DNA of 64,000 nucleotides from an uncultured virus (IMG/VR IMGVR_UViG_3300032030_000060) (lineage: Duplodnaviria; Heunggongvirae; Uroviricota; Caudoviricetes): the IMG/VR virus record IMGVR_UViG_3300032030_000060. The stretch is one strand, 5' to 3'. This document shows positions 59,053 to 60,100 of this stretch, one piece after another. The notes below the pieces were generated by a model. That model did no database searches. It saw only the letters and a program-made list of their open reading frames with translations, and was not told the DNA's origin. The first letter of the stretch is position 1, and each line of letters opens with the position of its first letter. A program made the translations under genes and the position numbers.

Positions 59053-60100
59053 AATTCAAAACGGAGACGGTGGCCGTTTAAAAAACACCGAGCTAATTAG
59101 GCTATTTGCTCTTTGATTTAGTTAACATACGGCTGAATGTTGAAGGCTGCGGCTAGTGCTGGTTATTTCTCCTCATGTGTGGTTTTTGATTGAGGTCTGC
59201 CGCAGCGGTTGCTTTTACATTGGAACAAGTAAACGTCAAATCATTCAGCTCAGAAAAGTTTGGAACGCGCCAAGGAATTGGAGCGGAGCAAATAAGCGAA
59301 AAATCAGATTTAACCCAATTTTGTATTTTGGCTGCTTTTTCAGTGTTTTGCGAGTTACTTTTCCGACAATTACTTTGAGTGAGGGCTGCGGAACGGCATT
59401 TGCCTATTAATTCCCAATTGCCGCAGTTAGTTTTCCGAGTGATATTTTATCCGTTATTTTAGCCGTTTGTTTGGCAGAGTAATTTAGTAGGAAGACGTTG
59501 AAAACTTGGGCACAAGTAAGAAAAAGGAAAACGGGAAGTAACAAACACTACACAATTTGCGAGTGAAGGACGTAATTACCGAAAAAATAAGTTTTATGTT
59601 CTTTGCGTAGGCAAAGTACAGTCTGCGAAGATATAGCAGATATTGCCCGTTGAAAGTGCAGTTAGGTGACAGTTGACTGCGATACGGGAGAGTTATTGAT
59701 AATTAGTATTTAGAGAAACAAGTAAGTACTAAAATCACATGTTTAATTAATTGTGGCGAATACTATCAGCAGAACAAATAAAACACCAAGTTTTGCGCCT
59801 ATCATTATAGGTATTGTTTTGGTGTTTTTGTTTTGTCGTTTTTGCGCCGTTTGCACAAGTTTATTACTTGGGCGCAAATAACGAGCAAGGACTATCATTA
59901 TAGTCGTACTATAGTATTTCAATACGGACAAAATAGGTAGTTTAATTAAAAGATTGCAATCTATCTGAAAATCTTATTGTGTGTATATTTGCGGCGGGGC
60001 TGCGAAGTTATTTAGATAGCCAATTTCTGCACACGAATTGGAGAAAAATAAGTATTCCCCTTCCCGCTTACTGCGGGCCGCAAATAACTAATTAGAGTTT
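59053..60100 (+). ncRNA. putative ~1-kb large structured non-coding RNA
   Basis: More than 12 nested helices with G-U pairs on the + strand, terminal CTAATTAG pairing, no credible ORF. Confidence 0.6.

Follow-up and report, generated by a model that had tools for sequence, protein, structure and literature searches.

What does a tailed phage keep in a kilobase that follows an early promoter and has no credible open reading frame (ORF)? The question is raised by a stretch of 64,000 nucleotides (nt) from an uncultured virus of the Caudoviricetes (IMG/VR record IMGVR_UViG_3300032030_000060; this whole stretch is called the window below), in which an early promoter at 59039 precedes the first rightward early gene at 60144. 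The initial annotation of this locus had proposed that positions 59053 to 60100 form a novel, ornate non-coding RNA (ncRNA) of about 1 kb that heads the early region. One part of that proposal stood: the stretch is non-coding, it lies behind a conserved early promoter, and its first ~40 nt are conserved with covariation. The single ornate kilobase did not stand. We read 59053 to 60143, with moderate confidence, as a long untranslated, cis-acting 5′ leader of the rightward early operon, or as an upstream ncRNA in its first ~0.8 kb, with a new pseudoknot motif at its head. That the stretch is transcribed, how far the transcript extends and every functional step considered below we infer from sequence.

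The pseudoknot and the module it heads

The elements at the head of the putative leader are as follows.

59039 to 59046, + strand: -7 box TATCTTTG of the early promoter, of the Bacteroidota sigma-A type by the consensus TAnnTTTG
59059 to 59090, + strand: H-type pseudoknot of 32 nt, present in one copy in the window and in one copy in the whole record of each relative
59059 to 59064 with 59074 to 59079, + strand: stem 1 (S1), AAACGG paired with CCGUUU
59068 to 59072 with 59086 to 59090, + strand: stem 2 (S2), CGGUG paired with CACCG, in which bases of the hairpin loop pair with bases past the A6 tract
59080 to 59085, + strand: loop 3 (L3), AAAAAA

The window's promoters follow the Bacteroidota pattern: instances of TAnnTTTG, the -7 box consensus given in PMC7366714, number 73, and TATCTTTG recurs ahead of genes. 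Judged by the position of the box, transcription would start near 59051-59055.

Homologs of the first early gene, which encodes a protein of 172 amino acids (aa), were found in three viral records (L002, L003, and L013), at 38-44% identity. Each of these carries the same arrangement: a TAnnTTTG promoter with its flank, an element of ~40 nt, a long leader, a hairpin, an AU-rich start region, and the gene. The box TATCTTTG and its flank (TTTGCA) are kept in all three. A covariance model built from these 3 relatives alone recovers the copy in the window with 36.9 bits (E 1.8e-06 in 120 kb), no other match scoring above 12 bits. Across the four sequences, all 44 cells of the alignment pair (20/20 in S2 and 24/24 in S1), in agreement with a hand count, while controls in which the partner was slid along paired in only 27-43% of cells. 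Both sides change at 4 of the 5 pairs of S2 with pairing kept, so that the pairing between loop and 3′ bases expected of the second stem of an H-type pseudoknot is held through sequence change. The covariation score was 0.485 for the pseudoknot and 0.256 for shuffles, none of which reached the former value (0/500). Its loops are short: loop 1 has 1-3 nt and loop 2 a single base, and loop 3 is A-rich.

The distance from the -7 box to the pseudoknot is 8 nt in L013 and L003, 12 nt in the window, and 26 nt in L002. A distance of 8 nt predicts that the RNA begins with the pseudoknot. In L002, the extra bases between box and pseudoknot can, by inspection, form a small hairpin of their own.

The co-occurrence of module and gene extends to its absence. 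Two further records, L001 and L007, lack the 172-aa gene and have neither the pseudoknot nor a long leader; the promoter of L001 lies ~85 nt from its first gene. Where the gene is present, the leader measures ~0.89 kb (L002), ~0.69 kb (L003), or ~1.0 kb (L013). The leader of L013 contains no ORF of at least 50 aa, that of L002 an 87-aa ORF on the minus strand, and that of L003 a 73-aa ORF starting with GTG; in L003, a 91-aa ORF also ends inside the pseudoknot. None of these leader bodies could be aligned with that of the window, including by blastn. Those of L002 and L013 are ~71% identical to each other, as is the adjoining gene, with blocks near 95%. Double changes were seen in 3 of the 70 pairs predicted in their common core, all of them in small hairpins, and this core is too conserved for a test of covariation. 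Relatives of the ATPase encoded behind the first gene are 54-59% identical over most of their length, and one 74% identical fragment came without a leader.

The 3 homologous modules were found in scans of viral, metagenome, and genome contigs, and no close relative of the window was among them. Other searches gave no further instance. Blastn against 50,697 phage records and a 23-mer from the leader searched against viral contigs gave no match; the first-gene protein alone found no homolog in viral contigs, nor did the first-gene alignment in genome contigs; and the loop of the relatives' 3′ hairpin, used as a query, returned the same three records only. Outside the known relatives, searches by pseudoknot pattern yielded only chance matches, in coding sequence or unrelated hairpins (L010, L011, L018, and L021-L026). 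A keyword-level literature search found no description of a leader or pseudoknot of this kind in Bacteroidota phages.

Resemblances to known RNA families were also considered. The DUF805 RNA (RF03081) gave 14.9 bits in the window and 14.7 bits in L002, against a cut-off of 51.1 bits, and no more than 12 bits in the whole records of the relatives; we rejected it as a chance match, because 10 of 14 control genomes give similar sub-threshold matches. The main text of the paper that introduced motifs such as DUF805 (PMC5737381) does not mention DUF805 itself. A weak match of L012 to the DUF2693 RNA (23.9 bits; cut-off 81.3) was likewise set aside. The preQ1 family returned no row for the window region, the element, or L002 at E up to 10.

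Composition and folding of the putative leader body

Between the pseudoknot and the last hairpin ahead of the gene lies the bulk of the leader.

59091 to 59985, + strand: leader body, free of ORFs, depleted in ATG, poor in C, moderately over-structured, and unalignable with the relatives; it contains both of the "domains" named in the initial annotation

As that annotation had stated, no credible ORF follows the promoter: on the + strand, 59100-60143 holds no ORF of at least 20 aa that starts with ATG. No long frame opens in the stretch under translation table 4 or with TAG or TAA read as glutamine. Its 7 short ORFs gave no match to Pfam and a single weak match to PHROG (E 0.034). In addition, of all trinucleotides on the + strand of the leader, ATG is depleted the most, with 4 occurrences where 16.5 +/- 3.2 are expected (z -4; 0/500 shuffles as low), which fits an RNA that is open to ribosomes and must stay untranslated. 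The stretch thus has the features of an untranslated 5′ leader: it reaches from promoter to start codon on one strand, contains no ORF, and has start codons selected against. In Bacteroides, 5′ untranslated regions (UTRs) have a median length of 32 nt, and 13.5% exceed 100 nt (PMC7366714). By this norm, a leader of ~1.1 kb is far outside the usual range and would be an unlikely accident in four phages.

The + strand of the leader consists of 15.7% C and 21.9% G, and C is scarcer than G in all four leaders (C 14-17%, G 19-22%). The termination factor Rho loads on RNA that is C-rich, G-poor, and unstructured. A leader that is poor in C and rich in hairpins would therefore resist it.

The fold of the body was compared with dinucleotide shuffles, with the following results.

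59053 to 60100 (1,048 nt), + strand: -292.4 kcal/mol, against -263.4 +/- 9.0 for shuffles; z -3.2, 0/95 shuffles as stable
59053 to 60100, - strand: z -3.6
coding control at 61602, 1,048 nt, + strand: z +0.55
coding control at 50000, 1,048 nt, + strand: z +0.45
59093 to 59300 ("domain 1"), + strand: z -1.4
59300 to 59560 ("domain 2"), + strand: z -0.2
59560 to 59700, + strand: z -2.7
59700 to 59900, + strand: z -3.9
59900 to 60100, + strand: z -1.0

The initial annotation had described the stretch as dense in nested helices. Each helix arm that it listed does lie where it was placed, and the helices, including the closure by CTAATTAG, are present in both the minimum free energy and the centroid fold of 59053-60100. 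The density itself held in part: the full 1,048 nt are more stable than shuffles, but the two named domains are not, the excess stemming mainly from 59560-59900. As the two strands have z-scores of -3.2 (+) and -3.6 (-), the signal is also not strand-specific. Uninterrupted Watson-Crick stems of at least 8 bp number 14, against 7.4 +/- 3.1 expected, and 5 of 100 shuffles reach this count. The leaders of the three relatives have fold z-scores of -3.4, -1.5, and -3.1 on the + strand and of -1.8, -2.9, and -1.1 on the - strand. A duplication of one unit into domains 1 and 2 was considered and rejected, their alignment score lying only z 2.1 above shuffles.

Two further arguments for an elaborate RNA were examined. 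The first was that mismatches resolve as G-U pairs on the + strand; stems of at least 9 bp that tolerate G-U number 79, against 68.7 expected, a count that 16 of 100 shuffles equal, and the argument falls. The second was the idea of one ornate structured RNA of ~1 kb, against which stand the unalignable bodies of the relatives, named domains that fold like shuffles, and an excess that is equal on the two strands. This idea also lacks support because GGCTGCG, which builds several of the helices, recurs on both strands in downstream genes, which points to a motif at the level of DNA. No covariation could be demonstrated for the helices listed earlier among the 3 homologous modules, whose bodies are unalignable and which include no close relative, so that this may be a limit of sampling. 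Rather, the data best fit a body that is kept long, free of AUG, and rich in hairpins, but not as one conserved fold.

The claim that the stretch matches no known RNA family held. At the gathering score, cmscan of the whole window against Rfam reported a single tRNA and no match to GOLLD, ROOL, OLE, or introns, and at E up to 10, a scan of 57000-60400 gave six noise-level rows, none from GOLLD, ROOL, OLE, or group I/II introns. GOLLD and ROOL are families defined by conserved, covarying multi-domain folds. The present stretch resembles them in being large, non-coding, phage-borne, and helix-dense in its predicted fold; it differs from them in having no Rfam match at either threshold and no conservation of its body.

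Signals and genes around the putative leader

Toward its 3′ end, the leader contains several candidate signals, followed by the first gene.

59776 to 59833, + strand: long A/U-rich hairpin running into a U-rich tract, UUUUUGUUUUGUCGUUUUUG (to ~59846); -18.5 kcal/mol, z -2.9, 2/200 shuffles as stable
59984 to 59991, + strand: second -7-like box, TATATTTG, 160 nt before the ATG and overlapping the 5′ arm of the last hairpin
59986 to 60086, + strand: terminal compound hairpin closed by TATTTGCGGC/GCCGCAAATA; -34.8 kcal/mol, z -2.1, ending 58 nt before the start codon
60087 to 60143, + strand: AU-rich spacer and translation-start region with GGAG at 60132-60135, kept in the relatives as ATTAAyTwAAA ... 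GGAGrymAnAATTATG
60144 to 60662, + strand: first early gene (172 aa), present together with the pseudoknot and the long leader

The hairpin and U-run at 59776-59846 are a candidate intrinsic terminator or attenuator; a terminator consensus scan, which does not admit a loop of this length, passed over the hairpin at 59776-59833. The box TATATTTG has no good -33 element by eye and is a possible internal promoter. In the relatives, as in the window, a stable hairpin ends 55-60 nt ahead of the ATG.

The product of the first gene belongs to no Pfam or PHROG family. Its structure is predicted confidently (predicted local distance difference test score, pLDDT, 89.5), comprising four helices at the N terminus, a sheet of five strands, two long helices, and a terminal hairpin. 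A Foldseek search of this model against PDB and BFVD returned no match at E 0.001 or better, rows resembling single-stranded DNA-binding (SSB) proteins or oligonucleotide-binding (OB) folds having E 0.09 or worse, and the best VIA-align Z was 3.5. The family comprises ~23 representative clusters in 1.84 billion proteins, and none of 10 tested carries a PHROG name.

A search for sequencing runs returned 14: one, of sheep gut, is a possible source sample (share of words 1.00), and two metatranscriptomes contain shares of 0.25 and 0.14 of the words of 57000-63000, values that do not bear on expression of the leader. The window is a segment of the genome of a tailed rumen phage, with PHROG matches to a large terminase, a major head protein, a tape-measure protein of 2,155 aa, a DnaB-like helicase, a DNA polymerase processivity factor, and a dUTPase. 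Its largest ORF-free gap, 57700-60144, separates leftward genes (57203-57700, - strand) from the rightward early genes, in which the 172-aa gene (60144-60662) is followed by genes for an AAA_5/MoxR-like ATPase and a DUF7192 protein. The gap contains two further features upstream of the early promoter.

58495 to 58710, no strand assigned: AT-rich imperfect palindrome (~22% GC) at the minimum of the cumulative GC skew, between the divergent transcription units
58729 to 58867, no strand assigned: four operator-like sites of the GTGTAATTTATACAC type in palindromic arrangement

Seven 8-bp repeats resembling TACTATAA lie inside the AT-rich palindrome, at 58539-58625. This palindrome is probably a replication origin or another control centre at the level of DNA. 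Comparable AT-rich blocks of ACTATA/AGTGTA repeats occupy the same place in L001, L002, L003, and L013. The GTGTAATTTATACAC-type sites are followed by an additional palindrome, TGCGTAATTTTAACGCA, at 58877-58893, and a similar one, GCGTAATTTTTACGC, is found in L003 at 3927-3945. A regulator of the early promoter probably binds at these operator-like palindromes.

On the leftward side of the gap, 57701-58350 also comprises ~650 nt without a credible ORF. Its - strand is very poor in C (C 11%, G 22%, T 41%) and contains repeats such as GCCAAAACGCCTTAAAAAC, and it may be a mirror-image leftward leader. Positions 57734-57975 of the window are 70% identical to 3228-3471 of L003.

Among the relatives, a -7 box is kept inside the leaders of L002 (TAACTTTG) and L013 (TACATTTG), and the ~150 nt that follow it are near 95% identical and include several hairpins, though the genes are ~71% identical. 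This internal stretch (L002 4163-4325; L013 2463-2618) matches nothing in Rfam, is without a counterpart in the window, and is likely a small RNA gene. The leader of L002 additionally contains GTTCCACGTGAAACAT in two tandem copies and, as a third palindrome, GTTTCACGTGAAAC (4340-4375 and 4584-4600); these are operator-like CACGTG sites absent in L013. The word GTGCAG is polarized about the AT-rich centre of L002: to the left, all 5 copies are on the - strand, and to the right, all 8 are on the + strand, 5 of the latter within the 0.9-kb leader. This polarity could reflect codon bias in genes or an oriented DNA or RNA word.

Elsewhere in the window, a 366-aa ORF at 13289-14389 has HNH/endonuclease VII-like matches in its first ~230 residues and a dUTPase match over residues 182-366, possibly reflecting the fusion of a nuclease to a dUTPase gene or its insertion there. 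The single tRNA gene reported by Rfam (18620-18691; 54.8 bits) lies among the replication genes.

Alternative readings and significance

Several observations weigh against a cis-acting leader headed by a pseudoknot. The pseudoknot is based on four sequences only, in an alignment fitted to S2, and S1 is invariant in all four, so that S1 could equally be a protein-bound palindrome in DNA. The depletion of ATG is accompanied by some depletion of CAT (8 against 13.9 expected; 2.2% of shuffles equally low), and in the relatives it is weak or absent (9 vs 13.8, 11 vs 16.0, and 9 vs 9.0). The scarcity of C may simply be GC skew around an origin. If the box TATATTTG drives the gene alone, the ~0.8-0.9 kb ahead of it would form an RNA unit of their own. 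The equal excess of folding on the - strand means that inverted repeats in the DNA could cause it; the leader of L013 likewise reaches z -2.9 on its - strand. Stems of at least 9 bp that tolerate A-C, equivalent to G-U on the - strand, number 33 where 20.9 are expected (1/100 shuffles), and are thus more enriched than the G-U-tolerant stems of the + strand. Finally, certain words recur. GGCTGCG, which forms the GGCTGCGG/CCGCAGC stems of the leader, has 13 copies in the window where 3.5 are expected, a count reached by 0/100 shuffles; 9 of the 13 copies cluster in 59145-62096, on both strands and also inside early genes. At 59907-59916, a copy of TACTATAG and the word TACTATA match the repeat of the AT-rich palindrome at 58555-58615. 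Together with CTATCATTATAG, present twice (59799 and 59892) against 0.2 expected, these recurrences make it likely that part of the self-complementarity acts at the level of DNA.

It is a further step, and an unlikely one in our judgement, to take the whole stretch for an origin or control region in DNA, in which the inverted repeats and the words GGCTGCG, CTATCATTATAG, and TACTATAG would be protein-binding sites or sites of replication or recombination, and any RNA made across it would have no function beyond bringing polymerase to the first gene. The strand-symmetric folding, the enrichment of A-C-tolerant stems, and the recurrent words just described speak for such a region, as does the stretch's position next to the GC-skew minimum. 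However, the covariation of S2 is explicable only by pairing in a single strand, and the depletion of ATG marks a strand that is transcribed and exposed to ribosomes. Moreover, the relatives do not keep the DNA words of the window but do retain a long leader, and sites in DNA give no account of 0.7-1.1 kb without a substantial ORF in all four phages.

Another possibility is a stand-alone, large structured ncRNA of ~0.8-1.0 kb, made first in infection from ~59053 to either the hairpin and U-run at 59776-59846 or position 60100, and acting in trans. It could, for instance, counter host defence or host RNA-binding factors in the manner of a decoy, sponge, or scaffold, with the pseudoknot as a 5′ cap structure. 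The stretch is indeed promoter-proximal, free of ORFs, folded with z -3.2, and without an Rfam match; a terminator-like hairpin lies ~780 nt downstream, and the gene may have a separate promoter at 59984. Each leader also has its own over-represented oriented word, as a sponge might show: GGCTGC in the window (4 vs 0.15 expected) and GTGCAG in L002 (5 vs 0.10) and L013 (4 vs 0.11). We nevertheless hold this reading to be quite doubtful, given that, across the four carriers of the module, the body shows no sequence conservation and no demonstrable conservation of structure, that both named domains fold like shuffles, that a strand-specific signal is absent, and that the module is always tied to one gene, as a cis element would be. 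A more specific version, which we regard as a long shot, is that a discrete and abundant early RNA of 0.8-1.0 kb starts at the pseudoknot and that its fast-evolving body, rich in hairpins, free of AUG, and poor in C, works in trans, for example by titrating a defence sensor or a host factor for RNA binding or termination by way of lineage-specific repeated words (GGCUGCG here, GGUGCAG in L002 and L013). If true, such an RNA would represent a new class of large phage ncRNAs, defined by architecture and not by conserved sequence.

Very improbable, finally, is a neutral spacer or decayed remnant of lost early genes or an old insertion, with only promoter, pseudoknot, and translation-start region functional: the body is unalignable between window and relatives, L001 and L007 manage without a long leader, and the two largest "domains" have unremarkable fold scores, but neither the ATG depletion (z -4) nor the fold excess (z -3.2) is expected in decaying DNA, six-frame remnants have no Pfam match and a single weak PHROG match, the leaders of L002 and L013 match the adjoining gene in conservation (~71%, some blocks being close to 95%), and a leader length of 0.7-1.1 kb is kept in four phages.

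Known phage and bacterial RNAs offer partial parallels to a cis-acting leader with a pseudoknot at its head. The put RNAs of HK022 are cis-acting antiterminators just downstream of the early promoters of a lambdoid coliphage, and consist of two stem-loops in ~70 nt. Like them, the element described here is a small structured RNA at the head of a phage early transcript, ahead of terminators, and is proposed to act in cis on its own complex. Unlike them, it is a 32-nt H-type pseudoknot in phages of Bacteroidota type, shares no common sequence with put, and is linked to antitermination by inference only. The leader of T4 gene 32 contains a pseudoknot that serves translational autoregulation and lies tens of nucleotides from the start site. 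Both are H-type pseudoknots at the 5′ end of a phage mRNA leader with an AU-rich region before the start codon, but the present one lies ~1 kb from the start, and the 172-aa protein has no recognisable fold. A third parallel is the layout of the preQ1-I riboswitch, with its hairpin, A-rich tail, and pseudoknot: here, too, an A6 tract comes after a short hairpin, and the bases next in line pair with the hairpin loop. As loop 2 is a single G in our element, however, there is no room for a ligand pocket like that of the riboswitch.

For the cis-acting leader, we propose the following course of events. Starting at the TATCTTTG promoter (59039), host RNA polymerase would transcribe the leader, with the pseudoknot as its functional core. 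The pseudoknot would act in cis on its own transcript, either by protecting the 5′ end or by modifying or recruiting the transcription complex. The untranslated kilobase could thereby survive decay, Rho, and the internal terminator-like hairpins, so that both the timing and the dose of first-gene expression would be right. The fast-evolving body, selected to be free of AUG and ORFs, would be a structured spacer with regulatory hairpins and no single tertiary fold, and how the first gene is translated would depend on the last hairpin and the conserved start region.

A giant ornate RNA would matter more than such a leader, and beyond its fold energy the present data give it no support. Still, very little is known of early gene control in Bacteroidota phages. 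An untranslated leader of a kilobase is ~30 times as long as the median Bacteroides 5′ UTR of 32 nt (PMC7366714). Unprotected, an untranslated RNA of such length would be expected in bacteria to fall to Rho and RNases. The 32-nt pseudoknot is a compact candidate for a protective device or for RNA-based antitermination. If this reading is true, it would constitute a new cis-acting RNA element, and this in a phylum that departs from the textbook in its signals for both transcription and translation.

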